DNA from: Curvularia clavata
Lineage: Eukaryota
Reading direction: 5' to 3'
DNA length: 64,000 bases
Assembly (NCBI GenBank): GCA_023920165.1
Contig: CP089274.1
Span: forward strand, 992,001 to 1,056,000
The first letter of the stretch is position 1; each line of letters opens with the position of its first letter. The notes below the pieces were generated by a model. That model was not told the DNA's origin, did not search any database, and saw only the letters and a list, made by a program, of their open reading frames with translations. A program made the position numbers and the translations under genes. Shown here piece after piece: positions 339-53,358 of the stretch.

Positions 339-822
339 TCTGTTGCGTAGGTAGTCATTGCCGAATGCTTGAGCCTACAAAGTGCCCAAGGCGAAAATTC
401 TATGAGTTCTAACCTTTCCTTTATGGGTCAACACTGATTGGATGACATACAGCTTCCAGTTCAATTGGTTGCTTCTGCTATGGGTACCACTATTGACACA
501 ACGTTGAATTCTGATAAAGTAACTAGCAACTCTCTCTGTTACAACCAAGAGGCAGTCCCAGCTTTAGCAATGTAACCATTATCTCGTGTGCTGGACGGAT
601 GTTGACGAGTGTAGACAAAGCCGAGGCGGTGGCCGAAAGCGGACAGTGCAGGGATGTGGTCGCGTCGGAACTATGCGCCGGAAGGAGCGACAGGTTGCTC
701 AAACGTCAGTCCACCAACAACAAGATCAGACGCATGGTTTGTTCTTTGGTCTGGTCGCTATACCCGCGCCTCTGCAACGTGATGTCGCGTTCAAACCAAT
801 AACCCGCGATTCTCACCCCGCC

Positions 823-3800
823 ATGGAGCAGACACCGATTGCGCAGATCAGCCCCGAGCTGGTCGCGCTCGAATCCAAGCATTTCCGGGCCACGGTCACG
901 TTGATATGGCCGTACTCGTCGTCGGCGCGGCAGTTGGCCCTTCTCCTCGCAGAGCCAGACGTCCGTTCAAGGCGAAGGAACGGGCAAGTCAGGGCCCGTT
1001 TCTCAGGCGCCAGCGCAAAAGCTATTGCGACAACAGGCATAGGCATCGGCGATGAGGTTGTGTTGAGTCTGAGGGGCGCGCAATTTGTGTCTGAGGGCAC
1101 TGTCAGCACGCCTGGAAAGAGCATCGATTGGGAGCTGGAATACGCCCAGACAGTTGTGATTCGTGTATTCCGCCACAGTGAGGAAACAGCAAATATCGAG
1201 CTCATTGATGCACCACCTACACAGACCCCGAAGTCACCGCTCCACCAACAATCTCGAGCAGCTCCGAGCCCAACGCTGAAATTCTCGTCTCCCGCTTTCC
1301 TGAAGCGTGCGCGCCTTTCTGATGGGCCCTTTTTTGAAGCGTCGTACGACCCCCTACTCGATGAGGCCGACGAAGGTCACGACAAAAAGCGGCGGAGGAA
1401 ATCATATCGGGACTGGAAAGCATGGACATACAGCGCAAGGACACCTTCGCCCGAGAAGGAGGATGTAACAATGGATGACGAACTCGAATTGCTCGAGGCT
1501 TCGCCTAGCCGCGCAGCGCAACTCCCTCGAACGCCCACTTCACCTTCAAAATCCGCTGTTGTACCCGCAGCAGAGACACCCCAGCATGCTCAAGACAACA
1601 AGCAGATAGGATTGGAGACCTCTACAGATAACAATGTCCTGCCACCGGATGCCGAATACGCTTTTGGTGGCGATACCGAAGTGGACACCGAAGTTAACAC
1701 CGAAGAAGAAGACCCTGCGCAAGGAGAGGCAGAGGCAAACCAAACGAACACGACTGAGGGTAACATCGAAGGGGTCCAGCGTACGGAGCGCGAAGCTTTG
1801 GAAAATAATACAGTCGCTGCGTCGCAAGTGAGGGTGGCGGTTGAGACGAGTGGGGATGTTGTAGAGGTCGATGACAAGGAGCAAGCTACCGAGACAGCAT
1901 CACCATCACGACAGTTTGATGCTCCGAGACTCGCCATGCCTCCTCCTACCTTATTGACCCTTCAAAACGATCTACAGAGTACTTCCTCTGCCGGACTCTT
2001 GACCCCAATCGGGAAAGAACCCAAGAGCCCAACCCTTCGGCCTTTGGATTCCACCAATCTTCCGATCCCGTCACCGTTTCCTGTGGAGCGAGAAGACAAT
2101 GCCACCTCTTACTTTGATCAACTAATTGCCAACGAGCAAGCTAAAGAAACTGAAGCCGAGGGCGAAGAGGAAGAAAGTCCGCCAAGTGAAGCAAGCTATA
2201 TTGGCGAGACGTCGTTCTTTAGCTCGATAGGCTCGTCAAAGGCATCGGGACTTCACCCCAACCATGAGTCGGTCTTTACACCTCTACGCTTTACCTTTGG
2301 TTTGGATGGTGCCGGGTCTTCGCGCCCTATGGAGCTGTCCTCCCCATCGCCTGAAAGTCAATTAGATGGAGAACGCGGCAAGTCACCGGAGCTGTCCGCT
2401 TCGACCACGGTAGTAGACACTTCATTTGCTAGTTCTCTACCCCAAAACACAGAGGAAGTTGAGACAGGCAATGAACAAGTCCAGGAAACAGGCACATCAG
2501 ATGTGCACATCGATACGGAATCCCAACACCCGAACACAACAAGGCTCTCTTCAAGCGGTTTCAGTGCCGAAAAAACAGAGCAGATGACTGCTGATCACTC
2601 GGTATACACAGACACTGACAGAGTGTTTGAAGACAACGCACCCATCCATCCAACTTCGCATTCCGGCACCAATGAAGCTATTGAGGAATCAGAAGAAGAA
2701 CAAGAGCCTTCGGCTAGGATGCATGGCGCACTCATTCAGGAAGAACATTCACAGGCCTTTTCCCACGAGCAAGACCAACATCAACACCACCCTCAGTCCA
2801 TGGATCTTGAAACTCGCGACACTTTTGAAGCATCAGATGAGCAAAAGGAAACTAACACGTCATCTCGGGAACCGGACCTTAGTCAAGACGTTGTCCCGAC
2901 AGAACAATCCTTCTCTGTCGACCACTCATACGAGGCTGATATGGAGGCTACTGATGACTACTTGCAAGACGCCTTCCCTTTGGGTCATATGTCGCAGGAA
3001 TTCCAGGATGGGCATCATACACATTCGGAACAGTATCCAGCCTTCCAAGAAGAATCGATGGAAGATCATTTTCACTCGCAACTAGATCAATCAAGTGCTG
3101 CGATGGTCTCTGAAATGTCCAATGTGTCCGCTAGCGAACAGTCTGCAGCCGCGTTTAAGCAGAGCCATGACGTGGATGAAGTACAAACAGAAGATGTGCC
3201 TGCTGGCAACACGCGGTCTAAAGCAAAAGTGGAGACATCACCCGTCGCCGACGAAGTGCCCGCTTCCGTTCGTACCACGCGCTCGACGCGATCCCGGGGT
3301 TCTGTGAGTTCCATCACTCGCTCCGTCATCTCTCCTCCTCGGACACACGCCCGCTCAGCACACTCTCCCCCACAGGGAGCTACTCAGGCTTCACCGAGTA
3401 GCGTTCGCAGCCAATCGAGGCTCTTATCACCAGAGGCGGGCTTTTCAGCTATTGCTTCTACCGCTACCCGCGAGAGTCCGCGGAGGTTCCTGCAGAGAAG
3501 CTTGAACAAAGAGTTCGCCGCGGTTCGCTCTGAGTCTGAAGCGCGAGGTCCATCAATAACCTCACAGAAGCAAGATGTCTCCGAAGGTGAACGTTCTCAT
3601 GACGACTTTACCAAAGACACGGACAAAGTTGCAGAACACTCTGTGTCGCCAGATATGCCATCGGAAGAATTTGCTGGAATAGGAAAAGCTGAATTTAGCA
3701 GTCCTATGAAACACGATGTTTCTGGCAACGAAGGAAGCTTGGACAGCAAACCTTCGTCTGAGAGAGGCCTTGAGGCAAAGACGAAATCGAAAGCTAAGGC

Positions 3801-5001
3801 TGAAAGAAAGAAGACTGCCTCAAAAACAGTTGTTGAAGCTCAAAATAATCAGTCTGTTTCGACTGAACTTGATACTCCCAGTAGACGACTGCGCTCAAAA
3901 GGATCTGTCGAGTCAACCACTGAGAGCCCTCGCGTTCTGCGGAGAACAAGAAGGAATGTATACAACCTCACTGAATCTCAGGAAACTGAAGAGGCTAGTG
4001 CGATCGATCCCAAGACTGATGGCAAGCATGGAGCGGACCTGCGACAGGGTGAAGGTGAAGGTCCAGCTCGTTTACAAGTGGATCAACAAAAGCAGAGACT
4101 CATGACACCGGATGCAACGCAGCAAACGGCAGAATCTCAATCCAGCTTCACTGCAGGTGCCACAGAACAGAACTCGTTATTGACACCTCAGCCTACCCAA
4201 CGAACATTCACCGATCCCCATTCCACCCAAACCGACATCGATATGGATGCCATGGCCGCATCACCGAGCGGCAAAAAGACACCTCTCAAGTTTACGCCTC
4301 GACGCGGCAGATCAGCCATCAAGGAAGTATCTGCTTCTTTGTCTCCAACTCTCATCGAGAAGCCCTCGTTAAAGACTGATCCCGATCGAGCAGAGGAGCC
4401 TTCAGTCGGTCTCTCAACTCCACTCGCGTACTATACACCACTCAAAGACCTTGTCTTCTTTCTCAACCGCTCTTCTCAATTCCACTCTTCTGCCAATCCA
4501 GACATTCTCGCCCTCGTCACGTCCGCGACGACCTCAAGTGAAAAGGCCAAGAAGGGCCCCAAGCACTGGAACACCACGCTTCACGTTACCGACGTGAGCT
4601 CCTGGCCTGCAACCACAACCGTACAATGTTTCCGCGCCTACCGAGAAGCACTGCCAGAAGCGACGGTTGGCGATGTCATTCTTCTGCGCGCTTTTGGTGT
4701 CAAATCGCTAAACAGGCATCCTACGCTTGTGAGTGCAGATGAGAGCGCATGGTGTGTTTGGCACTGGGGCAAGCCTGTTGAGGTCGCTCAAAAGGGTGCG
4801 TTTGCCGAGTTGAAGGCAAGGGAAGAGGTGCGAGGACCGGAGGTTGAACGCGGCGAGGGCGAGTTGCACGAGGTCGAGAGGCTGCGGAACTGGTTTGAGG
4901 CCAAGGTGAAGCAGGAGTTGCAAGAGAAAGAGGAGAGTCAGGTCAAGACGCGAAGTCGGGATAAGGCCAAGGGGGCTGCTAGTGGGAGTTCGGATGTGTA
5001 G
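823..5001 (+). CDS. Large protein with N- and C-terminal OB folds (POT1/Cdc13-like ssDNA-binding domain) joined by a long disordered acidic/Ser-rich linker
   Basis: Intronless ORF; likely start at ATG 823 (gccATGG). N-terminal beta-rich block FRATVTLIWPYSS...GIGDEVVLSLRGA. C-terminal block DILALVT...TLHVTD...VQCFR...LPEATVGDVILLRAFGVK resembles POT1 OB1. Confidence 0.7.
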   Translation: MEQTPIAQISPELVALESKHFRATVTLIWPYSSSARQLALLLAEPDVRSRRRNGQVRARFSGASAKAIATTGIGIGDEVVLSLRGAQFVSEGTVSTPGKSIDWELEYAQTVVIRVFRHSEETANIELIDAPPTQTPKSPLHQQSRAAPSPTLKFSSPAFLKRARLSDGPFFEASYDPLLDEADEGHDKKRRRKSYRDWKAWTYSARTPSPEKEDVTMDDELELLEASPSRAAQLPRTPTSPSKSAVVPAAETPQHAQDNKQIGLETSTDNNVLPPDAEYAFGGDTEVDTEVNTEEEDPAQGEAEANQTNTTEGNIEGVQRTEREALENNTVAASQVRVAVETSGDVVEVDDKEQATETASPSRQFDAPRLAMPPPTLLTLQNDLQSTSSAGLLTPIGKEPKSPTLRPLDSTNLPIPSPFPVEREDNATSYFDQLIANEQAKETEAEGEEEESPPSEASYIGETSFFSSIGSSKASGLHPNHESVFTPLRFTFGLDGAGSSRPMELSSPSPESQLDGERGKSPELSASTTVVDTSFASSLPQNTEEVETGNEQVQETGTSDVHIDTESQHPNTTRLSSSGFSAEKTEQMTADHSVYTDTDRVFEDNAPIHPTSHSGTNEAIEESEEEQEPSARMHGALIQEEHSQAFSHEQDQHQHHPQSMDLETRDTFEASDEQKETNTSSREPDLSQDVVPTEQSFSVDHSYEADMEATDDYLQDAFPLGHMSQEFQDGHHTHSEQYPAFQEESMEDHFHSQLDQSSAAMVSEMSNVSASEQSAAAFKQSHDVDEVQTEDVPAGNTRSKAKVETSPVADEVPASVRTTRSTRSRGSVSSITRSVISPPRTHARSAHSPPQGATQASPSSVRSQSRLLSPEAGFSAIASTATRESPRRFLQRSLNKEFAAVRSESEARGPSITSQKQDVSEGERSHDDFTKDTDKVAEHSVSPDMPSEEFAGIGKAEFSSPMKHDVSGNEGSLDSKPSSERGLEAKTKSKAKAERKKTASKTVVEAQNNQSVSTELDTPSRRLRSKGSVESTTESPRVLRRTRRNVYNLTESQETEEASAIDPKTDGKHGADLRQGEGEGPARLQVDQQKQRLMTPDATQQTAESQSSFTAGATEQNSLLTPQPTQRTFTDPHSTQTDIDMDAMAASPSGKKTPLKFTPRRGRSAIKEVSASLSPTLIEKPSLKTDPDRAEEPSVGLSTPLAYYTPLKDLVFFLNRSSQFHSSANPDILALVTSATTSSEKAKKGPKHWNTTLHVTDVSSWPATTTVQCFRAYREALPEATVGDVILLRAFGVKSLNRHPTLVSADESAWCVWHWGKPVEVAQKGAFAELKAREEVRGPEVERGEGELHEVERLRNWFEAKVKQELQEKEESQVKTRSRDKAKGAASGSSDV

Positions 5002-13683: not shown

Positions 13684-15502
13684 ACGCACTCTTGGCGTTT
13701 GGATTAGCATATGCAATCAAGCACTGAAAACATCTTACATCCAACACCGGCGTGTTGACGCTGTGTAGAAGCGAAGAGGGGTCAAGCCACCCGCTTCACT
13801 GGACAGTGTGGAGGAAAAGGGCTCTACGACCAAAGAGTAAGTCCGCCGTTGTTCACCACGTTCAGGCTCCAGCCGCTAATTTTATGGTTGTGTCAGAACC
13901 AAATTGAATATATACCCAGTCACCTGGTACTATACCACGAATCTATTCACAAGCGGATGCTTGCCGGCAACGCTTGCCTCTTGCCATTCTTCAGGTGTTT
14001 GCGATCTACATTCACGTTACCTCAGTTGCGTCAAATAACAATGATAATGTCTCGTCATGGTACCTTCAGGAAACTCATCCGAACATTGTTTGTGCAATGT
14101 ACTATTTGATCATGTCCTCAAGCAGCTGTTGTTATACTCTATAACCATCAAATCTGTAGGTGGGCTTGATGTGTCTGCCTTGTCGACTTGCGCATAGTCC
14201 TTAGCCCAATCTATCTTCAGAGCGGATTTGTCGGTGCTGGTTGAAGCTATGGCTTCCGCCGGGACCATGGGCCACCAGTTCCACGGCTTAATGTCTTGTA
14301 GCAACGTCACTACTACCACTTTCAGGAGCGTCCGCCGCACTGCACAGCCCACTCCGGTTTTGACTTGTGCAGGATCTGGTTCTTTCGCATAATGTAACAA
14401 ATATGAGCAGCATCCACATTGGAGTGACAGTAGTAGCATGGAGACCCTGATATTGAAGCACGATTTCAGATCGGCCTTGTACCTATGTTATAGTTGTCTG
14501 AACCCGCCTGATGGATTTTGTATGAGATCCCTGTAGATCGCGCGCATCCATTGGTTCATTCTAATGGCTCTCCACAAGTATGTAATGATGCAAGAGGTAT
14601 GGGCCTTACAAAAGACGCGAATCCGATTGCACCTAATGTAAGGGTGTCTGGGTCACGTTCCAAACACTGTGTGGCCCAGGACTGGATGGGCGACATCAGT
14701 CTCCCAATATGTTGTCTCGTTTACGTAGCGCAAAAGCCTTCCGAAACCATATGAAATCTCATAAGCGAATGGACGCCAAGGCATATTACTTCAGTCAGCA
14801 ACGATGAGATACAGAGTGTTTGTTGGGTTTAATGAACGTACAAGGTATGATATGATGAGATATTCCAAGACGCATCTCTATTTGTGCTCAGAGGTTGATT
14901 AAGGAACGAAACACTGATGCTAGACCCAAACGTAGTAGTCATGGTGAAATATGATATAATTTCACCATGACTTCAAAATGGGCAATACATCATAATGCGT
15001 GTGATAATCAATAGGCCGTTCACTAGAGCCTTCATCTTCACATCATCTTATCGCGTGCTTTATCGTGGGCCGTCCGTGACCCCAGTGCAGGCCAATATTT
15101 GTACATATACACGCTAGAATCTTTCCACATAACCACTACGGTCCTCTCCATGGTGTTTCGTCCGAAATCAATGTGCCAACCGTAACGTTCGGCGTTGTAA
15201 TTTGAGATTGCACTAGAGAGTGAAAGAAAACACATAAATATCAGTCCATCGTCCCTGGGAGTTCAACTTCTTATCAGCAAACACTTTCAGTCCTTCCATA
15301 CCAAATTTTCCAAACCGACTTACATGTACGTCTTCTACACTTGCTATCTTCGGTACTCTCAACCAACTCCCTCCAGGAAGTACCTGCAAGACTTCCCTTG
15401 GCTCCTCACCAATCTCTTACTACTATCGTTCAAGTGTTCCACACTCTAACACTCATTCACCAGACGGGCCATCTGCTACAAACGGAGGAAAAAGAAACAA
15501 AA

Positions 15503-15769
15503 ATGCAACCAACCGCTCTCACCGTTGCCCTGGCTCTTTTTGCCGGCAGTGCCCTCGCCGGCAGAGATCACAGCAGAGCGTTCTTACAACATATTGCTGC
15601 GCAGCCCCCTCACCCTCAAATCACCGTTCCGGTCGAAAGCATCGCTCTGCCTATCCAAAGTGTCGTTGTTCCTGTCGAGAATATCATCGTGCCTTCCGTT
15701 CTGAACCCCCCGGCTGTATTTCCTGCTCCCCCTCCCGCTCCCAGTCCTGCTCCAATTCCAGGCGCTTAA
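15503..15769 (+). CDS. Small secreted Pro/Val-rich protein (88 aa) with heptad repeats
   Basis: Signal peptide MQPTALTVALALFAGSALA; aaaATG context; probable 5'-UTR intron (gtacgt...ctaac...cag ending ~15463). Confidence 0.7.
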   Translation: MQPTALTVALALFAGSALAGRDHSRAFLQHIAAQPPHPQITVPVESIALPIQSVVVPVENIIVPSVLNPPAVFPAPPPAPSPAPIPGA

Positions 15770-16201
15770 GTCGCGAAATATTACTTTGGGGGATGGGTAG
15801 GGGCGGATTGATTCGTGGATCAGGAGCTCATAGTACATCAAAAGACTTGGGGTTAATGCGCTCCTATCTGACAATGATAAAACATGAAATGGAGTATTTT
15901 ATATTAGAATGTCTGGGCACCTCCAGACTCGTTGTCTTATTCTCTGCAGAGTGGGTTGCTCAGTGTACTAGTGTGATGTTGTCCTTATCGCATTCACTGC
16001 TTCCCCTTCTTCATATATGCACAGATTGAGTAATTCTATCTTCTGACCATCTGTAGGCGAAATGGCCATGGGCAAAGGAACGCTAGGTGAGCTAGTCTAA
16101 TAGCAAGTGTCTGTTTTGCTCTCTGAGAATATACGATTGCCTCTTTATCTTCAAACTCAATGTTCTGGTGCTTCTTGCGCTTTAACATTACTAGCACATA
16201 C

Positions 16202-18450
16202 TTATGTATTCGCAACGTTGCCAAATGCCAAATGCATCCTCCTTGCATGTGCAGCCCGTCGTTTAGCTTGTGCCGACATTGGCTTCTTCCCAACTAGATC
16301 TTCCTGGCTTTCATTAGAACGTGATGCCGAAACATGATTTGCTGCAATTGTCGTGGGAGATTTCTTCGTTGGGACTGCTAGTGGCTCTAATTCTTCATGT
16401 GAAGAAGGCAGATCTTTCAGTGCTATTGGATCAATCTTTGGCTGTTCGAGCCTTACGGATCCTTCAACCTGTCGAACAGAAGATCGCCGTTCAGCCACGG
16501 GGTTCGTTTCCACCTCTCCTTGTAGCCTCTGCTGAATTGCAGACAGATCTGAATTCTCATCATGTACATCCTCAGGCAACTCTGTCTCAGTGGCCAGAAT
16601 GGGCAAGCAAGCATCGTCAATAACGATCATCGGCAGTGGCGGAAGACGGGGTATTGGTTTTGTACTTCCAGCAGCCTGCTTATTCGTGCTCGAGGACTCA
16701 ACAGGAAGTTGAGAGTCTCCTAGAATGGCCGTTTGTATTTCTCTAGACGTTGTTGTTGACTCTGGCCTGCCTCCGGAAGTGTTTGGTGTATTTTTCGACT
16801 TGCGCTGGGATGGTCGCTGACTACTTGGTCGGCAAACTGAGCCCTCATCTTGTAGAAAAACAAGTGTGAGCGAGGAAGTCGATGGTTGAGACTTGCTTGT
16901 TAACGATGAGGGATAAGAAGGTGGTTTCGTTGTGCTGCTCGCTGCATTGTCATACATCGTATAAGATTCAGGGTTTGTGCGAGTGTTGCTGGGGGCGACT
17001 GTTTCTGAGTTGCCATGAGTTTGAGCATTCTCTGGCTCTTCATGACTTGGAGGCAGTTCTTCCAATGTATTTCGGTCATGTCCAGACTCTTTTATAGGCC
17101 ACGAGGCAGAATTAGTAGCTATGTCAGACATTGCCATTGTCCCTGATCGAGTTGGCAACGCCGCCCATTCTTCCACTGGTAACCTTTTGATTGCTGTAGT
17201 TGGAAGTGCGAAACCAGCCGCATCATCAAGTGAGGCCTGATTTTTCGGAGTGGGTGGTCGTTGGGCTCGTGGTTGGTACTTGTTATGACTCTGGATATCA
17301 ACTGAACTGGCGCGACCACGTCTCGCAATCATTGGGATCCCAGTAGCGGGTGCTGTGAATGGGATCAAATCATTGTGGACGATCATTGTATCAATAGATG
17401 CGCGGGATCTCACTCCGCCGATGGCGGTCTGTCGAACATGGTCTGAGGAAGCGCGTGGCCTTCGAAACAAACTCTGACTTTCGGTGAGACTCTCTTGCGA
17501 AGTCTGAAAGATCAAAACGTCATGTATATTTTGGCTTTCAGAGAGTTCGGATGGAGTGCTTCCTGCTAGCTCTACAGGCGTGGAATTGATAGAGGCCGCT
17601 GATACATGTTAGGCAAACTGTCAATATGATGTGGTGTTGTAAACTTACTTTCGACATCATCTTCATCATTTTCTAATGCAAGCGTAAGACTGGAGATAGA
17701 TGCATAGTTGTAGCCTAGTCGATGTTTCTGCCTCGAATAAGGACCACGGAATGTATCACTCTCGTCACGAATCACCAACGGTCGCACTGGAGCTTCGTAA
17801 ATGGGCTCCTGAATGATGACTCCGGGTCTGTTACACAACTCTGCTGTTTGCATCACATGGATGGCCCCCATCAGATTAATGTGGCATTGGTTCAACTGCT
17901 GCTGTCTCTTCAGCAGCTTTCTCTGGTTTTTTAGACCCCACTCAAACTTGAGTTTTGATGCAACCGTGCCACCATCCTCTTCGCGGCCCCACGTTGAGTC
18001 CATGTCTGTGCCAATGTCATTCAGAGTTTGCTGCGCTTCTTGCAAGCACTCCATAGCCCATGTTCGCTTGTTCGGGTAAGCGTCGAGAAAGTTTGAGACT
18101 GCAGGCGAGACATGTAGCCTCGTTGCTTCTCTGATGCCTTGTCGCACTTGTTGAATGGTGTCAACATAAACCAAAGTTTCCGAGGACGCCTTTTCAGAGG
18201 ACAGAATATAGTCAGCGAAGTAGTACGCTGTCTGTATTGCAGGGAATTCTTTCGAATTATCAACCACAGACTCTTCAGGAGTAGGTGTCGAGATCTGTTG
18301 GCCTTCGGGGCTCCTTAGTTGCTGCTTCGACCGCGTAATCATCCGCTGGAGGTAACTCGGCTTCTGCTCTTCGATTTCTCTCGCTCCTATCGGGGTTTGC
18401 GTAACATGGTGCGATGTTTGCGAGACTAACTGATCGCTCTCAGACAACAT
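16202..18450 (-). CDS. Hypothetical ~730-aa protein: helical N-terminal domain (HeLo/SesA-like candidate) plus long disordered tail; intron 17599-17648
   Basis: Splicing GTAAGT...CTAAC...CAG joins ORFs 17572-18450 and 16202-17515 in frame (…DDVE/TASINSTPVELAGS…HDVLIFQT…). Confidence 0.75.
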
Positions 18451-19315
18451 GGAGATCGAGATTGGTTTTGGCAGTACTGCTCAGCTAGATGTGTACTCCA
18501 AGGTCGTTGAACGAACTTAACCCAGCTTGTCATTTAAGGAACAGGGTGCCGCAATGGACGCCAGGACCAACATGCAATGACGTATATGCTAAGGGTACGA
18601 ACCAGCTGTGGGAGCTTGGGGCAAAAGGCTTTGCTTGCAGGAGTCGCCCGTCAGACGGTCCGGCCAGACGATGGCTAACAGATAAGACGATCCTGATCGA
18701 GGATTGGAATGCCTTGAAAAAGAGGGGATTGGAGGGGGTCAATAACTGTAGCACAGAGGATGATGTAGTGGCGAAAGCCATCTAGAATGGTTGTCACACT
18801 GAATTGATGCATAAGGCTAAGCGCCGGGTGGGATGCTTGTTATATACTAAGCGGTCAGCCGGGAACCTAAAACGTACTATTGAACGCGTCGCAAACACAT
18901 TGCCTATCGCTCGTTTCGAGCAACCGAACCGCGCCTCGTTGGGGGCCAAAATCTAAGCCCTGACTGGTCTCCACACACCAGACTGATGTCGGGGAACGAG
19001 ACCAGCTACCGATATAGATGCCGATCCAATATTTTGGACATCGATACTGTGTTACTATGCATACTGAATGATACAGGAATCCTTTGTCGCCACAAAGTCC
19101 AACAGTATGTTGAAGCGAGCATAAGGCCGTCTATTAGGCCGAAGGGCCATAGTTGCGGCCAGACTGGAAGTGATCTTGTTTCCAATTTTGAGATATGCAA
19201 TCACGAGCAAATAACGTGAGTTTTGACTCGTGCTCGATCCTGATCTATGGCGTACACATATAACAGAGAAAATTTTCCATTTTCCGAAAGTTTTAGTACA
19301 AAATCAAAACAATGG

Positions 19316-20503
19316 CTAGACGTCTATACGCCTAATGACGGCCTCACTGAACAGGCGTGGTGGGTTGATTTGCTGACCGGTCTCATCCGCCACTTGCATT
19401 AGGGCAGGGAAAATGCACAGCTCCCCTGCTGTGATGCTTTGTTGCTCCTGCCACTCAAAGCTATATGTGCTAGGCTGAGAGAACAATGTAAAAGCAAACA
19501 AGGCTGCGCGCCTGAGGATTTGTTCAAGGTTCCTCCTGCGTTCTTCGTTAAGCTGGTAAGGGTCTTCGAACGGCTCCGAAACCCCGTTTGCATATGGCTT
19601 CAAAATCCGGTCTAGTAATGCAAGCAAAGCCTGTATATTTGCATGACGGCTGTCCGAAACATCGAAGGGAGTGCGAACATAGGTAGACTGCGAAAGTTGT
19701 GAAGTCATCTTTCTCCAGTGTGAAGTTGACTTTAGTTGTACTACAGTATGATTAGCACATATACAAAGCTATGCTTTATAAAACCTACTTTGAGATTTGA
19801 GATTCTTATCAGTGACTTTGCCGTATAGTTGCGCTATCTCGGTTGGCAAAAGGCTCTTCGAAGAATCGCTGGATGGCTCCATCCTCGAAATCACAGCCCA
19901 AGCAATGACGAATCTGAGAGCAGTTTCTCTTGTGGCAGCGTTCTCCATTAGCGAAGTAAGCGTTTCCACAGAGACTGGCAGACCTGTTCCGAGGGCACGG
20001 AGATCATCGTGGTCTACCAATACTGAGCTGGTGTGGTTGTCGTAATAATAACTTTGTACGTGATTCTTGATAGAATTACTAATCTTAGAGACATGCCCAG
20101 TCATGGCTTGATCCTCTAGAGGCTGTGGAAGTGCTTCAATGGACGTGGCGCCCCCATGGGATGGAGACACGGTGGAAAGAGAAAGTCCCTTTTCGCGAGA
20201 TTCTGGCGTATGTTGCCCAGCTTGCGCGTATTGTTGCTTGGACGATTTTCTTCGTCGGACAAAGAACCAGAAGAAAAGCGCAGCTGCGAGAGCAACAGCT
20301 GCGACAGAACCAATAACACTGCCAGCAATGGCCCCTGGTGATAGGCCAGCACTGCGTCCTGCATGTTCACGCGTAGAAGGGACGGTGGTATTAAGAGCTC
20401 CAGAAGCCAGAAGGCTAGTCGATTGGGGTGAGGTACTCATTGAGGATATTGCGCCCACCGAGGGGGGTGCGGACGAGGTGAGTGATGTCGCTGAACTAGC
20501 CAT
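19316..20503 (-). CDS. Single-pass membrane protein (379 aa): Ser/Thr-rich N-terminus, TM helix, folded cytosolic domain; intron 19741-19788
   Basis: TM segment GAIAGSVIGSVAAVALAAALFFWFFV followed by RRRK. The intron GTAGG...GCTAAT...TAG joins the two ORFs in frame. Confidence 0.8.
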
Positions 20504-21044
20504 GTTTGAATGCTTCTTTCCTATAGCTTCTGATAACAGAGCGATGCATACAAGAGAAGAAAGACCGTAACGTGGAGTTTTTGAACAAAATAGACTAGGT
20601 ACGCGTTGTGATGGCCTCGGCCTTAAGATCAGAGCACTTTCAGGCCTTCCACTGTGACACCTGCTCCGCGGATGGACCAAATCAATAGACAGTTTCTGAA
20701 AAACCAGTTCTTGTCAGTGGGTGCAAATAGAACATTGGGTTAGGTTTCGTTGCTCGGCCGCAAGATCCTTCGGGGCTGATCAGCCAATAAGCCATTTGTG
20801 CGCTCTGATTTCTAATCTGAATGAAAACCGTAAGACCCATTTTGCATGCATGTTGCGCACGTTCGAGCACTAGCTCCACTGGGGGCCAAAAGGGCGCAGT
20901 GTTGTGATCGGCTAAAAGTCGCTGCGCCGCAAGGCTGAGCCCCGGAGTTAAATCAAAGGCGCCTGGGTCCCATTAGCGTTTGATAGACATGCGATCAGAC
21001 AAGAACAGCAGCAGTGAAATCGGTATCACGGCCGACACTACAAG

Positions 21045-23311
21045 ATGCAGCGCAACGAGCGACCTCATATGATTGTGGGTGTGGATTTAGGAATGACATG
21101 TAAGTTTCAGCGAGGTCGACTTAGGCGTGACTAAGCTTTGAACGGCCCGGACTACAACTGGATTCGGATAAGCGCAGGATAACACGCTCCATCTTCTTTT
21201 GACTGACATGACCTTTTTTCTCTAGGCACTGGGGTGGCATATGTGAATTTATCCATAGGCAGTGAGACTATTCGCTGGGTTCAAAAGTGGCCTGGCCGGT
21301 TCCAGGCAAATGAAAACAAAGTCCCAACTGTTGTCGTCTATCCATCCGGTTCCAAAGATCCATCATCATGGGGTTTCCTGTCGGAGACCACGGCAGAAAC
21401 CATGGCAGAAGACAAGGAATACAAAGAGTGGTTCAAGACATGTCTCGACCCTGAGAGATTGCACCAGAAGCAGATGGAGGACCCAGAAGGCGCACCTGGA
21501 AGTTTACAAGAGGTCGAGATGTGGTACACTGACTATCTGCGGAAGATGTATGAGTACCTATCCTTCAAGCTAGGCGGAGAGCTTACCGGAGTTGGTTGGG
21601 AGAACGCACGAATCGAATTCGTCTTCAGTGTACCGACAACGTGGGCCCCCGTACCAACAGTAGAAAACTTTAGGAGAATCGTGAAAGAGGCGGGTTATGG
21701 TACGCACCCCGGACATGTGGTCGAGATAGGCTTGACAGAGGCCGAGGCAGCCGCAGTACATGTATCCACAGAGGCTCCAGGCATTTTCCGCGAGAACGAT
21801 GTATTGCTGGTTTGCGATGCTGGAGGTGGAACCACAGATTTGAGTGTGTTGAAGGTAACCGGGACCGTCAACCAAGCCATCGACCTTCGACAGATGGATG
21901 TTGTGTTTGGAGAGACGATCGGCTCAGCCGCAATCGACTATGAGTTTGAACGACTCGTGACGCACCGTTTGACACTTGCGCACAGCACAAATCCTTTACC
22001 CGCTGACCCAGCAGATGCGGCGTGGGAAATGATGAAGAGTCGCGACTTCCAGGCTGTGAAATGCGAGTACGGCGCCCCAGACGACACTCCCTTCTTCAGC
22101 ATAAGCATACCACAGGTTCCGCAAACTTACAGTAACTCGGATCCTGAAGTTCGAATTCGTAATGGCGAAATGACATTCGAACGGGGGGACCTTCAGCGCC
22201 TTTTCGATAAACAAATAGAGAAGCTATGGAAGCTAATCGACACGCAACTGGAGTCGTTGCTCCGGAAATTCCCACAAGAGCAGGTAGCACATCTTGTGCT
22301 TAGTGGGGGTTTGGGCAACAACGCGTATGTGCAAATGCAGTTACGACAATACTATGGAGTTACATCCTTCCCTAATGCGCGGTCCATCCAAGTCAGTATC
22401 GCCCCTGATCCACAGCTTGCCGTGTGCAAAGGTCTAGTCAGCGATCGTATTCGCAAGATCACGACGTCCCGGTCCGTTCTCGGATGGCGATGCTGCCGTG
22501 CGTCGTACGGCACAGTGTGCAAGATTGCGTATGACAAGAAGAATCCCGAGCATCAGGGCAAAACAGTCGTGAAGGATCCTCTGAACGGCAAGCTGTACAT
22601 TACCCAATCCATTGCATGGTTCGTGAAGAAAGGCGCACCTGTGAGTGTGGACAAGCCGATTGAGCATCAATTCATCAAGAAGATTACCCCTGGCGATCCA
22701 AGAAGAACTTTCCCGACAACCGTTGTCCAGAGCGATGTCGAAGCAGCCATGTTGCCGCACCAAATGAATCAACGTACGTGTGGACAAACCTGTGCTCAAG
22801 CTAAGATTACACGAGTGCGCTAACAATACATGCAGACACACGTATCCTTTGCGAGATCCAATCTGATCTCTCCGCTGCAGACGAGAAAAAGTTCCAAGAG
22901 AAGAACAAACACTTCTGGTCCCTGCAAAAGCACTATCTACGCGTAGAGTATTCGATACGCGTCCTGATCGGTCCGGCTGACATTCGGTTCGAGTTATGGT
23001 TCAACGACCAAAAGCTTAGTCGCGACGAATCTATCAAAGTCGAATGGATGCCCGTTTCAACGTCCCAGACACCTCAAATAGCAGAAATGCCAGGGGTGAT
23101 CTCGCCTATCGAGATGGCGGCTGCGCCGACTACGCCCATTGGCAATGCACCTCAACGTGGCGCGTTCGAGAGCTTGCCTGGTGCGAATGGGACCAAGCCA
23201 AGTAATTTTGCCATCATCAACAGAAAAAGTGTGGATTTGGAAGACCGAAAGCCGCGAGGAAGGGGAGGGTTGTTTGGAAGGAGTACTATCTTTGCACGTG
23301 CCGGTTCATAA
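21045..23311 (+). CDS. Atypical Hsp70 / actin-like ATPase (HSPA12-like), introns 21100-21225 and 22774-22835
   Basis: Phosphate-1 VGVDLGMT/CTGVAY; FVFSVPTTW; LTEAEAAA; phosphate-2 VCDAGGGTTDLS; LVLSGGLG; AVCKG. No canonical substrate-binding domain or EEVD end. Confidence 0.9.
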
Positions 23312-23706
23312 AGAAGCTAAACCGAGTGTGGCTGAGACGGGCTTGCGCCTCAACCGGCCCAGGAGATGGCGCCCGTTGAACACCTGTAGCTGAAAGCTAC
23401 GGAACTAATTATTGATGTTGCCTTGGATGCCTTAATTCTTTCGTAACTGTGATCTCATGCTGATTGGCTGTACTACGATTGATTGTCCTCCCAATGCCTG
23501 TCAGCATCGCGGTCATATTCCCGTCTTGTACTAATGCCGCCCCCAACCGGTTCTCAGCTCGTCAGCCTTGTCAGCCACATCCGTTTGGATTGCAGGCAAC
23601 TAACTACCCGCTCATTTTTTATAAGTAGCATAGTGAGCCTGTGGTTTCATCCCCAAGTCCCGGATTTCTTTCTCTCGTATTGTTTTAGATAATTCCTTCA
23701 AGAACT

Positions 23707-24426
23707 ATGCGTTTCCTCTCAGTTGGTGGTAAGAGCGAAATCAGCCTTGCTTCCGACTATCACTAACATACAAAAGCCATTTTAGTTAGCCTGCTTGCAT
23801 CAAGCACAGCTTTCCAACTACCAGCACAAGAAGTTCTAGGTGAAAACGCACTAGAAACTCCAAATGAACCGATCATCGACCCCTGCACCCTGGCGGATTC
23901 GCCGAAAGTAAACGCTAGTGTGCAGTTGAGTAACTGGCTAGAATGCGCCGTCAATGGTACGAAAATCTTACATGTATGTTACAGAACTGTTAGTCCTAAC
24001 ATCACACCAGGGTTCTATCCATTTCCAGCAAACACAAACTGGCCCCAGGGTCACGCAAAATCTTTCTCAAAAGATATCAGGTTCACATTTAACGACACAC
24101 ATTACGACTTTGATGGCTCATTGAGGCTTTACAAATCGTTCAATGCAACGCTCGGCGTGGCTTTTGCGCCATTCAAGCATGGCTTCATCAATACACTCGG
24201 TGTCCCCAATTCAAATGGCGACAAGGGTGGGTTCGTGTACATGATTGGATGGGCCGGCGGTTTTCAGACACGTGTAAAGCGCGATCTTTACTTCACCAAT
24301 GCAGCGTTTGCAGTAGTCAAGGAAGTAGATGGAGAGAGGAAAATTGTGGAGTTCAGGGAAAGTGGAAATATCCCGAACACTGCGATTCTTCCACGGCCGG
24401 TCGAGTGGACGTGTGACTTTAAATAA
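23707..24426 (+). CDS. Secreted protein, possible NTF2/SnoaL-like fold; 2 introns
   Basis: Spliced signal peptide MRFLSVG/AILVSLLASSTA; FSKDIRFTFND…AVVKEVDGERKIVEFRE pattern is reminiscent of NTF2-like folds (by eye). Confidence 0.7.
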
Positions 24427-24848
24427 TTGGGCTATTATGTTGTGCTTCCTTACCCAGCAGAAGAAGCATTGATTGCTTCCAGTATTTTGGGAATTCACTC
24501 ATGAAAGATGTATCCGTAACTTAGCGTCGTAGTCTTTGTTTTTGTCGCGGAGTATCATTGGTTGATATGATTCCGTAGAGAAACGTATTATTGGAAAACG
24601 CCATAAGCCTTCCCGTGGTCCATGATGTGAAGTCAAATGCTTTGACCGAAACAACTCACTTATTGGTGGTCTATGTGTAAAATCAATGCAGCAAACAATT
24701 GCAAGACAAGCTTCTATTATACTAGTCGCGATGAGCAAATATCTTTCATGTTCCAAAAGCAATATGCGTAGCTCTATAATTTCCCGGCCCGAAACCTCTT
24801 CTCAACGAGGACTAACGGTCCAGCAACGTTACCCAAATACGGACAACA

Positions 24849-25285
24849 TGTATCTAAACCACTCAGCTCAGACTACGATTCTTAGCAACATACCACCTTC
24901 AGACTTTAAAGACTTGGTAGATGCTGCAATCCGCCTACATACCGACAGCCTTCGCTTCTTACAAGAAATCAACTGCTTCTCCGCACCAGACAATTACGAC
25001 TCGCATGAAACAGAGGATGAACACCGCATAACCGAATGTCAAGTGACCATGGCCAGAGACTTGGTAAAGAGACATGATGATCTTGGCAGACATTATGGCT
25101 GGGTATTAGCCGGTGACCATGCGTCCGTGGATAAAGCGCTTAGCGGCATGTGCAAAACAGAAAAGCGACCAAGCGAGTGGTTCAAAGAAAAAAGCAGCGA
25201 GTTGGAAGGTTTGCACACCATGTTGAAGCTGCTGCAACTGTCAGTTTATGAGACCAGAAGTGAGCTGGCATATATTCAAGCATGA
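24849..25285 (+). CDS. Hypothetical helical orphan protein (start uncertain)
   Basis: Open frame of up to 199 aa with protein-like amphipathic composition; no recognisable motif. Confidence 0.4.
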
Positions 25286-26012
25286 CTAGCTTGGTTTGAT
25301 TGTACACATCTCGTATTCGGTATATTTACTATAATGCGGGGCCAGCAGCAGATCCCATCTCGGTAAAGCTTTGCCAAGATGGTTGATGGAATTTTCAGTC
25401 ACTCTTATGCATCTCAGTATGAGTGAACGTACCTGTTGTTCTACCCAGGAAAGGTGAATGGAATTTGCCGTCAGGTTTCTATCACAGGGAGCGCTTTGTG
25501 CTATCTCGGTGGAGTTCAATGATTCAAGACAATTCCACTAGTGCCATGACATCACCGATTCTCTAAACGAAGCGGAAATAAGGCTGCTGTTAGTGGATTC
25601 GTATAGTATGGGCCAACCCTTTGGAATTGTAAGCGAATATACCGTAGAAGATTGGTAGCGTCCTACTTTCTTAACAAGTTGAGTCATGACAAGTTGTTCA
25701 AAGTATGGATTGCCAGTGCCTCATGAAACAGCCAAGTTATTTCAAGTCACATGTACATACAAAGACGCTGATTGGAAGGCATAATTTGGATTATATCACA
25801 CACATGGTCATTACATGATTCTCTTGGATGCTTCGCATTGCTCACGATGCTCGTGATTACTCCGCTTTCCATAAAAGCTCTTTCTTATGTACTTCGTAAA
25901 CCAACATGGCCGCTGCCCGCTAATAAAACATGATTTCTAATATTCATTAGCAAAAATCATTTTGCTGAGAAGCAACTGGAAATCTCACCATAAACTGTAC
26001 GGAGTGTAGAAA

Positions 26013-26213: not shown

Positions 26214-27579
26214 GGTGGTATTGAGATAGTAGTTTTGAGAGTAGATAGAGAAGTAGTGATTTGTGAATTTGGTGAGGAGATAGTAATGTTCAAAGTTGAT
26301 GGGAGAGTTGAATGTGTTTTGGGAGTTGGCTGAAAGATATAGGGTGGCTTGATTAGCCCTTTATATCTTCACATCGACCATGGATGTGACGTACAACGGG
26401 ACCCGAAACGTGACCGCTGATTAGAACCCACAGGCACCGGATGTCCGCTGCACAGCCATAGGGGGAGTGCGGCCCAAGACTTGACAAGAACGCCCGATGG
26501 CCAGGATGATCATCCCCAACCAGGTCAAAAACAATGCAGTGAGCCCCCAGTTTGCAGTGTTCCGCCTGCATAACAATATGTTTTCCATGTGAACAATTGT
26601 ACAGTGCAGACGATGTAACTCGATTTTGAGGCAATTGTGAGTTCTCCCGGCAATTGTGTTTGAGCGCCACGGACTTGGCTCCTTGGCCTCCGGTCTAAGT
26701 GGGCGAGCAGGAAGCGGACAAGGACGCAGATCATGGTCGATCTTCAGCTTGGGTTTTTGCCCAGAAAGCATGCTGCGGACAACTTTCGTACATGCCTTAC
26801 GTGTCAGTTTAACCGATAGTGTTATGGCGTCGATCTATGTTCTGGATAGTGCTGATGGTGTATATGGTGTTGAGGCAAAGTTGAGATTGCCGAGACTCTG
26901 GCGTAGATCACAAGGGAAGCCAAGGCATTGCTGTGCATGTGAGGCAATATCCATGCACTATACGATTCAAACGTGGGTGAGTGTAGGAAGCATGCCTAGA
27001 AACAGAAAACCTAGTGAGTACATTTTTGGGCGCCACAGCCCGCCAACCTGACCAAGATGTGCTGTGCTATTGAAGGCTGTAATGTTGCACCCCTGACCGC
27101 TTGCATCCATTCAGTCAATGCAATGCTAGGGTGGTACGTCTGCCTAGAACTCTCATTGGCGGTTTAGACAACACGCCAATGTGTTTGTGGTCGTGGGAGT
27201 TGTAACATGTCGATCAAAGTTGGCATAGAGTCAAAGTCTACGTATGTGGCTAACGGTAAAACAGGCGGCTCAAAAGCCAAAAAAAGCAACTCCAAACGGA
27301 ACAAATAACAAAGCGAGCGAGCCGGTGTGTCGGTGGCTTGTATCAGATAGACATGGTGCGATGCGCCTCTTCGAACACGGCGCGTTTCGAGGCCGAGGAT
27401 GAAGAAGAGATGGTTGGCTAGCAGAGAGGGAAGCTGGACGCGTACTGGCTATCTTATCTCCGAGGCGGTTACTATCTCCTGCCCTGCATAGCCAGCAGCC
27501 ATGCAACGTGCGCCATCTTCCCCACCATTACCGTCTCAGTCCTACTATCACTAGCACTCGTCGCTTTGATTTCTCAAGC

Positions 27580-29139
27580 ATGGCAAGCAACAACGATGAC
27601 AGAAACAACAGCAACAATAGCGACAATGATCGGCGCCAACACCACCGCCCCGAGGATAACCCCTTCATCGCCTTCCGCCGTTTCGCCGATTCCCAAGTCT
27701 CGTCCCTCCTAAACACCGTCTTCGCTCTTCCCGCTACTCTCGCCAGTTACAACAACGCGCATCAAGCACGTGAGCAATGTCTCTTTGGTAAGGCCGATCA
27801 GCGACAGTGCGACAAGCTCCATGAGATTGAAGCGCGCATCGCCGAGCTGCGAAATGAGGGGAGAGAGCTCTTCAGAGTTGGCGATGTGCATGCTGTGCTG
27901 CGTAACAGCGAAGAACTTGTGAGGCTTGACCGTAGGGCCGATGACATTCGGAGAGACATCCTCTGTGCCTCACACCCAGAAACCCAAACACAGCCACCAT
28001 GGCCAAATGAGACCGAGCTCGTGGAGAGAGTAGCCAACAAAAAGGGGCAGGAGTGGGGTTGGGCATGGGATTGGGGCTTCCCTCGACCTTTTGATCACGA
28101 GCGTTCGAATCTCCGGGACACATCAGAGGAACAAGACGCTAAAGATTTCATGGCTCTGGACAGGCTGTTACGGATGCAAGCGGAAGCGTCGAGACTGGCC
28201 CAAGAATTTGATGACAAGGCTTGGGACGACTCCGCCGCGCGTGTTGTAAGATTCGACAACTGTAGCGAGACTCGGGTCAACGATGGGAAACCCAGGGTAT
28301 GGTCGTGGTCAAGGTCATGGCAATGGCCGCCACGAACAGATACATCACAGTCTGACGAGGACACATACTCACCTCATGCGCTCGAACAAAATCGTGCCCT
28401 GGACAGGGCTGGTATACCGTGGCGTGCTGCATATGAAGACCTTTTGCGGGCCGAAAAGATTCCCATTTCTCAACATCAGTTAGAGCAGACTACACAACAA
28501 GACGGTGAGCCCAAGTGTCCAAGTGGCATGGACACTGATGCATGGTGGTCCCGGCCTGGCACGCAGCAACAATCGGGCGAGAAAATGCAGCGAGATGAGG
28601 ACGAGCCAAGCTACGAGTACAGCCACGATCACGAAGACCAGCATGATGACCCGCCCACACCTAAGCGTAACCAGTTCCCGTCGTTCAACGAGTTCCGGCA
28701 GGATTCCGCAGCACACCCAGATAGAGAAGCCGCACGATATGAAGATTATGCCAAGGAATACGACGACCCCGCCACAGAAATGGATGCGTATGAGCGGTTG
28801 GATGCTGCATCTGCACACACCACTACCCCCTTCAATTCGGTGACGTCTGCCCTTGCAGAGAAGAGAAAAGACGAAGCCAAATCCTCTCTACTTTCGACAC
28901 TCACAACTACCGAGCGGACCGTTGCGCCTGATGGCTCTGTAACTACAAAAGTTTTGCTCAAGAAGCGCTTTGCAGACGGGCGCGAGGAAAGCACAGAAAC
29001 TGTACATACTCAGCGCGGTCATGAGACTGACTTACCCGCCAAGGATCCTTGGGAGGCACTGAAGAGTTCTCAGTCAAGATCGTCGGAGGCGGGGGACGGG
29101 CAAGCCAAGAAGAGGAGTAGTTGGTTCTGGTCGAGTTGA
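27580..29139 (+). CDS. Hypothetical Trp-motif-rich protein
   Basis: Long intronless ORF; DNPFIAFRRFAD near the N-terminus; C-terminal STLTTTERTVAPDGSVTTKVLLKKRFADGREE…SSWFWSS. Confidence 0.8.
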   Translation: MASNNDDRNNSNNSDNDRRQHHRPEDNPFIAFRRFADSQVSSLLNTVFALPATLASYNNAHQAREQCLFGKADQRQCDKLHEIEARIAELRNEGRELFRVGDVHAVLRNSEELVRLDRRADDIRRDILCASHPETQTQPPWPNETELVERVANKKGQEWGWAWDWGFPRPFDHERSNLRDTSEEQDAKDFMALDRLLRMQAEASRLAQEFDDKAWDDSAARVVRFDNCSETRVNDGKPRVWSWSRSWQWPPRTDTSQSDEDTYSPHALEQNRALDRAGIPWRAAYEDLLRAEKIPISQHQLEQTTQQDGEPKCPSGMDTDAWWSRPGTQQQSGEKMQRDEDEPSYEYSHDHEDQHDDPPTPKRNQFPSFNEFRQDSAAHPDREAARYEDYAKEYDDPATEMDAYERLDAASAHTTTPFNSVTSALAEKRKDEAKSSLLSTLTTTERTVAPDGSVTTKVLLKKRFADGREESTETVHTQRGHETDLPAKDPWEALKSSQSRSSEAGDGQAKKRSSWFWSS

Positions 29140-52378: not shown

Positions 52379-53358
52379 GATGTATGAGATGCAATGGCGC
52401 AGGTGGTGTGGCTGACGTGCTGTCTCCGTGGCTCAGCGTGAAGGAATCCAATGGGTTTATGATGAGAGGGTTTCGTTCTCGAAACGAGCACCAGAATCAA
52501 CTGCGTGGATGGAAGGTATAGTAGAAGCAAGACTGTCACGTTCTAGTGGTTGCTGTAGACGAGTGAACGGCAGACGTTCGGCGACATGAGAGGAACTGCG
52601 GTGAGCTGAGGTCGAAAAAGGAGATAGAGTGAACGTCAGGCGAGCAAGGAGCAAGTGAGAGTGGCTGAGAAAAAGGCGCGAGCAGCTAGCCAAGGTCAAA
52701 TGGTCGTGTGATTTACTCGAGTCGACGTCGAGTAAGAGCACCTAGTATCTACCCATCGAACAGAAACATACAAGACTTGCGGATAGTTAGTAGAGAAAGC
52801 AAGAGAGTAAATGAAACATAGGAATACTGACGTCTTGCGACCTTGTGCGGCACCACGGTGCTATTCAAGGCTGAGAGAGCAGATTATGTAGCGAAGATGA
52901 CTGTCTAGCACATGTTCAGATGCGGCAGACGTGGGAGTGAAAAGGAAGGGTTCTACGACCACAGATCGTGCAGCGTTGTTGCCTGTCATCAGCGGATTGT
53001 GGATTGTGTGCGAGCACACTTCGCTACCGGATACCACGACATCTCCTGGCAAATGGTGATGACTTTGTGTGTCAGCGGTACTGTTGACCAATGCGCGACA
53101 GTCTGGACTCAGGCAAGAGACTTTTGTACATGTTTATCGAATTTTTGCTACACCTAGTCGTTGTACCCAATTAGCCTTGCATAGACATCGGGATGCTGGT
53201 TCTCATATTTCAAGTCCCGATAACGCCCGGAAGAGACAGCACAAAACAAGAGCTTGCATGTCCCAGCCCGCCGAATATGATGATAATCAACAATTGCGCA
53301 TTCGTACATGCGCGCAGGAAATGTCCCCAAGACCCTGCTCCCAATAGTGCAAGTAAGC

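Follow-up and report, generated by a model that had tools for sequence, protein, structure and literature searches.

A three-gene cluster of filamentous ascomycetes linking a divergent Hsp70-like ATPase, a candidate membrane-anchored partner and a helical-bundle protein

We analysed a window of 64,000 nucleotides from Curvularia clavata (contig CP089274.1, positions 992,001 to 1,056,000 of the forward strand; all coordinates below count from the first letter of this window) and focused on three adjacent genes, here called HSP, MEM and G3. An original prediction, made from the letters alone, had proposed that a three-gene module lies at this place. All three models were built from splice signals, and together with the spacer between the two divergent genes they are laid out as follows.

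21045–23311, plus strand: HSP, a divergent Hsp70-superfamily (actin-fold) ATPase of 692 amino acids; exons 21045–21099, 21226–22773 and 22836–23311

19316–20503, minus strand: MEM, a single-pass membrane protein of 379 amino acids; exons 20503–19789 and 19740–19316

16202–18450, minus strand: G3, a protein of 732 amino acids; exons 18450–17649 and 17598–16202

20504–21044: divergent MEM–HSP intergenic region of 541 bp, presumed to be a shared promoter

MEM and HSP stand head-to-head, with 541 bp between their start codons at 20503 and 21045, exactly the arrangement that had been predicted. The HSP model has the same length (692 amino acids) and the same junctions as its Alternaria homologue P0003, to which it is 88% identical. 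The G3 intron is 50 nucleotides long (GTAAGT...CTAAC...CAG) and joins the two long open reading frames (ORFs) in the range given by the original prediction, which implies it; the homologues P0162 and P0164 (725–743 amino acids) align over both of them. The exact joints 17598/17649, 19740/19789, 21099/21226 and 22773/22836 are found in assembled contigs of public sequencing runs searched over positions 16000–23500: run X1 carries four of the four, X11 three, and X9 and X16 two each. The MEM joint (19740/19789) is present in all four runs, and the G3 joint (17598/17649) in X1, X9 and X16. The runs were labelled as RNA by guess; we take them as RNA because their contigs lack the introns, and therefore all three genes are transcribed and their models are right. 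One X1 contig (record 2) spans 18814–23500 and takes in both MEM and HSP as well as the 541-bp spacer; neither of the two opposed genes retains its introns in it, so transcripts cover the spacer. Overlapping 5′ ends, antisense transcription or a merge made by unstranded assembly could produce such a contig, and a contig spanning two genes is no proof of a single transcript.

The linkage of these genes extends deep into the fungi. We collected 41 metagenome loci anchored on relatives of HSP, at 29–89% identity. By tblastn, MEM lies upstream of HSP in every locus with more than 1.4 kb of upstream sequence (28/28); the other 13, whose upstream sequence does not exceed 1.37 kb, show no MEM. L001 and L002, L010 and L016, and L018 and L019 are duplicate pairs, which leaves about 22 distinct loci. 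The two genes are divergent in 26 of these 28 loci; in the short loci L020 and L021 they run co-directionally, with MEM about 0.5 kb upstream of HSP. The gap between them measures 0.5–2.6 kb in 27 of the 28 and 5.5 kb in L035. With a hidden Markov model of its N-terminal domain, G3 was found beyond MEM in 15 of the 19 loci with room for it, on the opposite strand and inverted relative to MEM in L031 and L034. The linkage thus survives rearrangement, both in L020/L021 and in L031/L034. As a control, the other genes of the window have no match in the distant loci except for a weak helicase hit elsewhere in L014, and the flanking genes match L001, L002 and L005 alone among the loci; since flanks are common to close relatives only, the three-gene linkage goes beyond local synteny. 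Adjacent locus tags in annotated genomes (N0V90_008975/008976 in Kalmusia, W97_02172/02173 in Coniosporium apollinis, and J4E84_003929/003930, corresponding to MEM and G3, in Alternaria hordeiaustralica) repeat the arrangement. The conservation that the original prediction asked to be checked by synteny is therefore borne out.

HSP and MEM also diverge together. Their pairwise identities correlate closely (Pearson 0.90 over 231 pairs from 22 loci), and their trees contain the same well-supported clades. Lophium mytilinum carries HSP copies in two of the shared clades (P0069 and P0109), so the pair either predates the duplication or was copied in it and stayed linked. MEM evolves several-fold faster, with an end branch of 0.69 for the window protein against 0.12 for HSP. 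It could be argued that there is no functional unit at all, and that a shared bidirectional promoter or slow rearrangement keeps unrelated genes together. Compact fungal genomes do contain many divergent gene pairs, and linkage by itself leads to co-divergence; however, the linkage is kept at about 30% HSP identity, with differing flanks and after the changes of orientation described above, and the interface predicted between HSP and MEM (see below) scores 0.79 against 0.06 for the best control and falls on family-invariant motifs. We regard this explanation as very improbable.

The upstream regions of the cluster share a 12-mer, with one copy at each of two places.

20880–20891, plus strand: copy of TGGGGGCCAAAA in the MEM–HSP intergenic region

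18940–18951, plus strand: copy of TGGGGGCCAAAA upstream of G3

These are the only two occurrences in the 64 kb, and both fall in the upstream regions of the cluster. Allowing up to one mismatch, there are two matches against 0.23 expected, a number that 2 of 100 shuffles reach. The exact 12-mer recurs upstream of G3 in L001, L002, L003, L007 and L013, and a one-mismatch form sits at the same relative position of the spacer in L001, L002, L003 and L007, where an inverted second copy lies about 60 bp off. Shared upstream motifs had been part of the original prediction, and in this 12-mer, kept in relatives, they are indeed present; at the level of sequence, their sharing supports a common regulation of the genes in this lineage. 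The 7-mer core TGGGGGC was also considered as a family-wide element and rejected, since its enrichment in spacers (13 in 28.6 kb against 50 in 390 kb) comes via close relatives only.

These observations bear on whether G3 belongs to the unit. Alternatively, the HSP–MEM pair alone would be functional, for example as a nucleotide-dependent adaptor for MEM trafficking or turnover, and G3 would be a frequent but unrelated neighbour. MEM is never missing from an informative locus, while G3 is found in 15 of 19 with its strand changed in two, and the animal pair HSPA12A–SorLA, discussed at the end, offers a precedent for such a two-partner system. Nevertheless, in each of the three deep clades of the HSP tree G3 adjoins the pair, where the other flanking genes do not, and its upstream region carries the same conserved 12-mer as the MEM–HSP promoter. 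We consider a pair acting without G3 unlikely, and G3 is likely the usual third member, a client or an output of the pair.

HSP is composed of a nucleotide-binding domain (NBD), a conserved beta-rich C-terminal region and a disordered tail. Its profile aligns by hhalign with E. coli DnaK (Prob 91.2%, E 9.9e-7, 208 columns; profile positions 157–406 against DnaK 136–361), with the phosphate-2 and adenosine motifs in register (DAGGGTTD opposite DLGGGTFD, and LSGGLGNS opposite LVGGQTRM), and with YegD over 97 columns (Prob 86.1%). Weak Pfam matches to DDR, MreB and HSP70 all fall on the DAGGGTTD stretch; PF00012 scores 11.1 bits against a cut-off of 20.6, short of a canonical Hsp70. A profile search of the PDB with HSP gave no match at E ≤ 0.01 and, at E ≤ 10, the mortalin NBD alone (E 0.78). 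The DnaK alignment ends at residue 361 of the NBD and hhalign finds none past it, and HSP is therefore, as judged from these alignments, a protein with an NBD of the Hsp70 superfamily in which no Hsp70 substrate-binding domain can be recognised. The label “HSPA12-like”, which comes from the original prediction and from database annotation, is a putative subfamily assignment. At 23200–23308 (plus strand) the protein ends in a glycine-rich basic tail, RGxGGLFGK...F.R or RGMGGLLAKARGGKW, which is conserved in Pleosporales and absent from lichen-fungus and other distant homologues. Outside the fungi, the NBD-only gene yegD of E. coli K-12 (L044, 2147674–2153128) lies beside yegI (a Ser/Thr kinase), pphC (a phosphatase) and yegL (annotated with an IPR002035 domain), and this locus likewise places an atypical Hsp70 within a small gene cluster of signalling type.

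MEM begins with a short S/T-rich N-terminus, followed by a single transmembrane segment, the residues RRRK and a conserved cytosolic domain of about 250 amino acids, helical with a small beta sheet; it is thus a single-pass membrane protein, as anticipated. Its structure was modelled with AlphaFold2 on the Alternaria panax homologue P0354 (52% identical; alignment of 78 sequences), in which a confident beta-sandwich ectodomain, a disordered stalk and the transmembrane helix precede cytosolic helices at 231–419 and a small sheet at 424–470, with a predicted local distance difference test score (pLDDT) of about 90. The beta-sandwich ectodomain (P0354 residues 17–95) occurs in Alternaria and many homologues and is absent from the window MEM and its nearest relatives, P0121 and P0122. 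Foldseek against the PDB returned nothing for the MEM model at E ≤ 0.001; its best match, a DH/PH RhoGEF fragment (E 0.018, TM-score 0.13), is not trusted. The best scores among the matches listed by VIA fold searches are Z 5.5 and 5.0, and on these models the cytosolic domain is without a clear solved relative. The architecture (S/T-rich stalk, one transmembrane segment, cytosolic tail) fits that of Mid2/Wsc-type sensors, and some homologues bear the names “Mid2 domain-containing” or “cell wall integrity and stress response component”. PF04478 Mid2 itself matches only 2 of the 78 family members (E 0.13). Two structural leads came from the Atlas search, both under the Atlas bar: a mollusc cluster, 88% of whose members carry PF16026 MIEAP (TM-score 0.54 by query and 0.40 otherwise, 191 residues), and the C-terminal domains of plant GIL1/IRKI (0.58). 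The 25 of 50 Pfam families listed for the 78 MEM members do not include MIEAP, and neither the MEM nor the G3 ORFs of the window carry a significant Pfam family.

The original prediction saw a GrpE-like protein in MEM, and this identification is not supported as homology. The 78-sequence MEM profile aligned by hhalign with E. coli GrpE gives Prob 0.56% and a sole alignment of 34 columns, around RNLEE..LKRAA.FA, a resemblance that probably lay behind the call. Pfam finds no GrpE on the window MEM exons at E ≤ 1 and none among the listed families just mentioned; the PDB profile search returned look-alikes of the stalk and transmembrane segment only, and no GrpE. Neither GrpE nor another Hsp70 exchange factor is among the VIA matches listed for MEM, a search with a 473-residue model that may weaken single-domain matches.

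Binding between the two proteins is nevertheless predicted. In three runs the complex of HSP and the cytosolic part of MEM, folded with homologous proteins, scores 0.78, 0.79 and 0.79, and three controls score 0.06, 0.00 and 0.00. The scores are read against a mark that 51 of 78 solved complexes attain, compared with 2 of 108 mismatched pairs; for eukaryotes the figures are 39 of 65 solved pairs lacking a similar older complex and 2 of 126 unrelated pairs. Between the runs at least 90% of the contacts coincide, and the partner's pLDDT is 84 or more. The contacts fall on LPQPLED, KNH/QS and NLEE..KR in MEM, and on QANEN and residues 291–310 (KCEYGAPDDTPLFS) in the NBD of the ATPase. On the MEM side, the interface is enriched in columns conserved at 90% or more (14/29 against 59/220, Fisher p 0.017). 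The prediction supports a binding of the MEM cytosolic domain to the ATPase, as had been supposed at the outset. In the hhalign alignment, the contacting ATPase residues 298–307 stand opposite DnaK 271–280, which we take to be part of subdomain IIB, the region that exchange factors move; MEM may therefore have an exchange-factor-like role.

G3 starts with about 70 disordered residues, followed by a helical bundle at 72–206 (135 amino acids), a long S/T/P-rich disordered region and a basic C-terminal motif; in the AlphaFold2 model the bundle has a pLDDT above 90 and the rest is disordered. A helical N-terminal domain of about 140 amino acids had been foreseen, and the bundle is there; in the window protein it begins at residue 72, after the disordered leader. 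In many distant family members the matched stretch begins at residues 2–12. Among 1.84 billion representatives, 154 relatives were found at E ≤ 0.001, many of them 640–940 amino acids long with the domain N-terminal.

Comparisons of this bundle with HeLo-type families give several weak leads, all of them sub-threshold. At E ≤ 0.01, Pfam gives no family in the 40 G3 homologues scanned apart from one weak GatC match, and the family threshold of HeLo, HeLo-like and SesA (PF14479, PF17111, PF17107) is not reached by the G3 family. At E ≤ 1, HeLo is the commonest weak match (5 of 105 members, best E 0.025), and MLKL_N appears in one member. Neither Foldseek with the G3 model against the PDB (E ≤ 0.001) nor the PDB profile search with the G3 profile (A3) returned a match. 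Matches of the bundle in VIA include the coiled-coil (CC) domains of plant immune receptors, namely NRC4 (9cc8_A, Z 9.7, root-mean-square deviation 3.4, 107 residues aligned), the wheat CNL resistosome (9h2l_A, Z 9.0, 3.7, 98) and the CC-R domain of NRG1.1 (7l7v_C, Z 7.3), as well as MLKL (4btf_A, Z 6.9, 3.5, 98) and AtMLKL3 (6ka4_A, Z 6.6). These matches (Z 6.6–9.7) rank amid many unrelated bundles and inside the helical-bundle background (Z below about 13), and the HET-s HeLo structure is not among the VIA matches listed for G3. An Atlas cluster in which 10% of the members carry PigL_N scores 0.87. Taken together, the HeLo-type leads are mutually consistent, each of them within background. 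Matches to Hsp70 lids (Sse1, Z 7.9; PfHsp70-x, Z 7.6; Ssa1 SBD-alpha, the alpha part of its substrate-binding domain, Z 6.8) were taken as generic helical similarity and set aside.

The tail of G3 contains conserved islands, and its extreme C-terminus, ...AQAKRRAAHARRM.LAFG, is kept even in distant members.

16205–16288, minus strand: C-terminal basic motif of G3, KKPMSAQAKRRAAHARRMHLAFG..., conserved in distant family members (tails of 37 homologues compared)

By BLASTP this end is 69–83% identical over 23–26 residues in P0172, P0176 and P0177. Two RxRxxS motifs, RRPRASS and RRGRASS, occur further upstream in the tail (17444–17464 and 17303–17323, minus strand), with RRPRARS and RRYRATS in Alternaria-like homologues. 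RxRxxS is the consensus of AGC-type kinases, and as sequence motifs these sites hint at phospho-regulation. No convincing amyloid-like or tail motif common to G3 and HSP was found; the C-termini of both are conserved, basic or glycine-rich, in Pleosporales.

The surroundings of the cluster are rich in housekeeping genes. The ATPase shares 88–89% identity with Alternaria and Stemphylium proteins, in the tree its neighbours are Pyrenophora and Alternaria, and sequence relationships place the window in a filamentous ascomycete of the Pleosporales. Its Pfam-identified neighbours include Prp9/SF3a60, a DEAD-box helicase, NDK, a GH31 glucosidase, anoctamin and GH10, together with Yju2, an APC3-like tetratricopeptide-repeat protein, p24 and USP7, and both flanks recur in the close relatives L001, L002 and L005 at 83–96% identity. 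The descriptions of the genes as non-housekeeping and of the stretch as accessory are not borne out, given these neighbours and flanks syntenic with close relatives. G+C content dips slightly at 14000–26000 (0.44–0.51, against 0.50–0.59 in most of the window), which may be the source of that label; gene content and synteny speak otherwise. At E ≤ 1e-4 no Pfam family was found on the uninterrupted ORF at 568–4998 (plus strand, 1477 amino acids) or on the ORFs at 23767–24423, 27403–29136 and 50369–52432.

The cluster was first read as an immunity or cell-death unit independent of NOD-like receptors (NLRs), in which a GrpE-type membrane sensor switches an Hsp70 that restrains or releases G3, a HeLo-type, membrane-disrupting executioner. 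The module is indeed conserved, HSP–MEM binding is predicted, and weak leads from G3 to the HeLo/MLKL/CC group of four-helix bundles recur in Pfam, in VIA and in the PigL_N cluster. However, the GrpE homology on which the switch was based fails, and every HeLo-type signal is sub-threshold and within the helical-bundle background. It is the extreme N-terminal helix that matters in HeLo proteins (PMC12881547; the papers cited here by PMC number were available in part, and what is said of them refers to those parts), and the bundle of G3 is preceded by about 70 disordered residues. We saw neither an NLR nor an amyloid motif or protease in the cluster, and its housekeeping surroundings and single-copy orthologues across Pleosporales set it apart from immune loci, which are usually variable. 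In the available part of a review of fungal cell death (PMC12881547), the word “chaperone” is not used. We consider this reading improbable.

A related scheme drops the GrpE-type sensor. MEM would sense a surface or wall cue at the plasma membrane, and its cytosolic domain, possibly a remote relation of the animal MIEAP domain, would set the nucleotide state of an HSPA12-type ATPase, which in turn would hold or release a HeLo/MLKL/CC-type G3 acting on membranes. We find this chain of sensor, switch and effector just as doubtful; if it were true, it would amount to an NLR-independent fungal damage or death pathway, and the orphan HSPA12 branch of the Hsp70s would gain its first dedicated cofactor and client.

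The explanation we lean towards, with moderate confidence, is a conserved, co-regulated three-gene cluster of filamentous ascomycetes, whose core is an obligate pair of the ATPase and a dedicated membrane-anchored partner and whose third member is G3. It is reasonable to hypothesize that MEM is a Mid2-like single-pass partner with a cytosolic fold of about 250 amino acids that has no solved relative and is not GrpE. Docking would take place through the invariant motifs LPQPLED...SKISNxIKNHVQS and RNLEEILKRA of MEM and QANENKVP and KCEYGxPDDTPxFS of the ATPase. MEM may then recruit the ATPase to the membrane and set or read its nucleotide state, and the ATPase may act on the G3 product or on the trafficking or signalling of MEM itself. 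G3, for its part, would combine a helical bundle with a long tail that is disordered and probably phospho-regulated, and with a conserved basic motif at its C-terminus. In this account the gene models, their transcription, the deep linkage, the co-divergence, the promoter motif and the Hsp70-type NBD homology are shown, and the binding and its interface are predicted; what we infer is which way control runs, what G3 does and which cellular process is served.

Several points weigh against this explanation. It rests on computation throughout. The complex was folded with P0003 (residues 1–610) and the cytosolic residues 225–473 of P0354, not with the proteins of the window; its score is the model's own confidence, and neighbouring genes drawn blind reach the same mark in 7 of 44 cases. 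On the HSP side the enrichment of conserved columns at the interface is weak (15/27 against 250/583, Fisher p 0.14). The contact prediction covers HSP and MEM only, with G3 outside it, and the N-domain model did not find G3 in L009, L011, L012 and L014 (4 of 19 loci), so it may not be obligatory. Co-divergence is expected from linkage for any linked pair and is not by itself a sign of interaction. The shared 12-mer is confined to close relatives and is not found in the distant loci. Finally, the taxonomic range, judged by protein names, comprises Dothideomycetes, Lecanoromycetes and one Leotiomycete, and the distant loci are metagenome contigs.

We found no description of this three-gene cluster in open-access papers and preprints, and its conservation suggests a functional unit not described before. 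In eukaryotes, conserved clusters of several genes are rare outside secondary metabolism, and they usually indicate proteins acting together. This one brings together an orphan Hsp70-like ATPase and a partner whose fold is unknown, and offers a concrete, testable predicted interface on invariant motifs.

Some features of the cluster recall known systems. In E. coli, the diverged Hsp70 paralogue HscC is encoded beside a dedicated single-pass membrane cofactor, DjlC, which acts through a J domain. The likeness lies in a specialised Hsp70 gene adjoining that of a membrane-anchored cofactor; unlike DjlC, MEM has no DnaJ family among the Pfam matches listed (window exons, and 25 of 50 families for the 78 members), and the fungal ATPase lacks an Hsp70 substrate-binding domain. 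Hsp70 exchange factors such as GrpE, BAG and Hsp110 (PMC13580251) dock on the nucleotide-binding domain, as MEM is predicted to do, whereas MEM has neither sequence similarity to GrpE nor an exchange-factor fold among the matches listed. Prokaryotic conflict systems, in the part of Kaur et al. 2020 (PMC7159879) available, also use an HSP70-family component dependent on nucleoside triphosphates, sometimes with a copy that lacks the peptide-binding domain; they are built in bacteria on GTPases, tubulin and GrpE/DnaJ fusions, and no such partner is present here.

A parallel within fungi is offered by the HeLo/HELL clusters (het-S/nwd2 and HELLP/PNT1; PMC12881547), which likewise are two- or three-gene clusters with a helical-bundle protein of MLKL/CC-like appearance. 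Compared with those treated in the available part of that review, the cluster described here showed neither an NLR nor an amyloid signalling motif, the bundle of the window protein does not sit at the extreme N-terminus, and the Pfam HeLo-type threshold is not reached. The same 2025 review, as far as available, covers NLR–HeLo and gasdermin–protease clusters (PMC12881547); should G3 prove to be a HeLo/MLKL-type bundle, a chaperone-controlled, NLR-free route would be added to the known fungal cell-death pathways.

The closest experimental precedent is human HSPA12A, in the animal pair HSPA12A–SorLA. HSPA12A, an atypical Hsp70 ATPase, binds the cytosolic part of SorLA with a dependence on ADP/ATP and via acidic residues, as described in the accessible part of Madsen et al. 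2019 (PMC6345817). In both pairs an atypical Hsp70-family ATPase without a classical substrate-binding domain would engage the cytosolic part of a single-pass protein, and the acidic residues used there have a possible counterpart here in the predicted contacts, which include the invariant acidic LPQPLED just inside the membrane. SorLA differs in its short tail, which is unrelated to the folded 250-amino-acid domain of MEM, and the animal genes are unlinked. Of the Hsp70 literature, the available part of one paper (PMC3879978) treats classical Hsp70 subfamilies only, no occurrence of Hsp70 was found in that of another (PMC10197012), and a 2026 review, where available, describes the function of the HSPA12 branch as still unknown (PMC13580251). 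A genetically tractable fungus in which the partner is defined and a client is proposed would open this question to direct tests.

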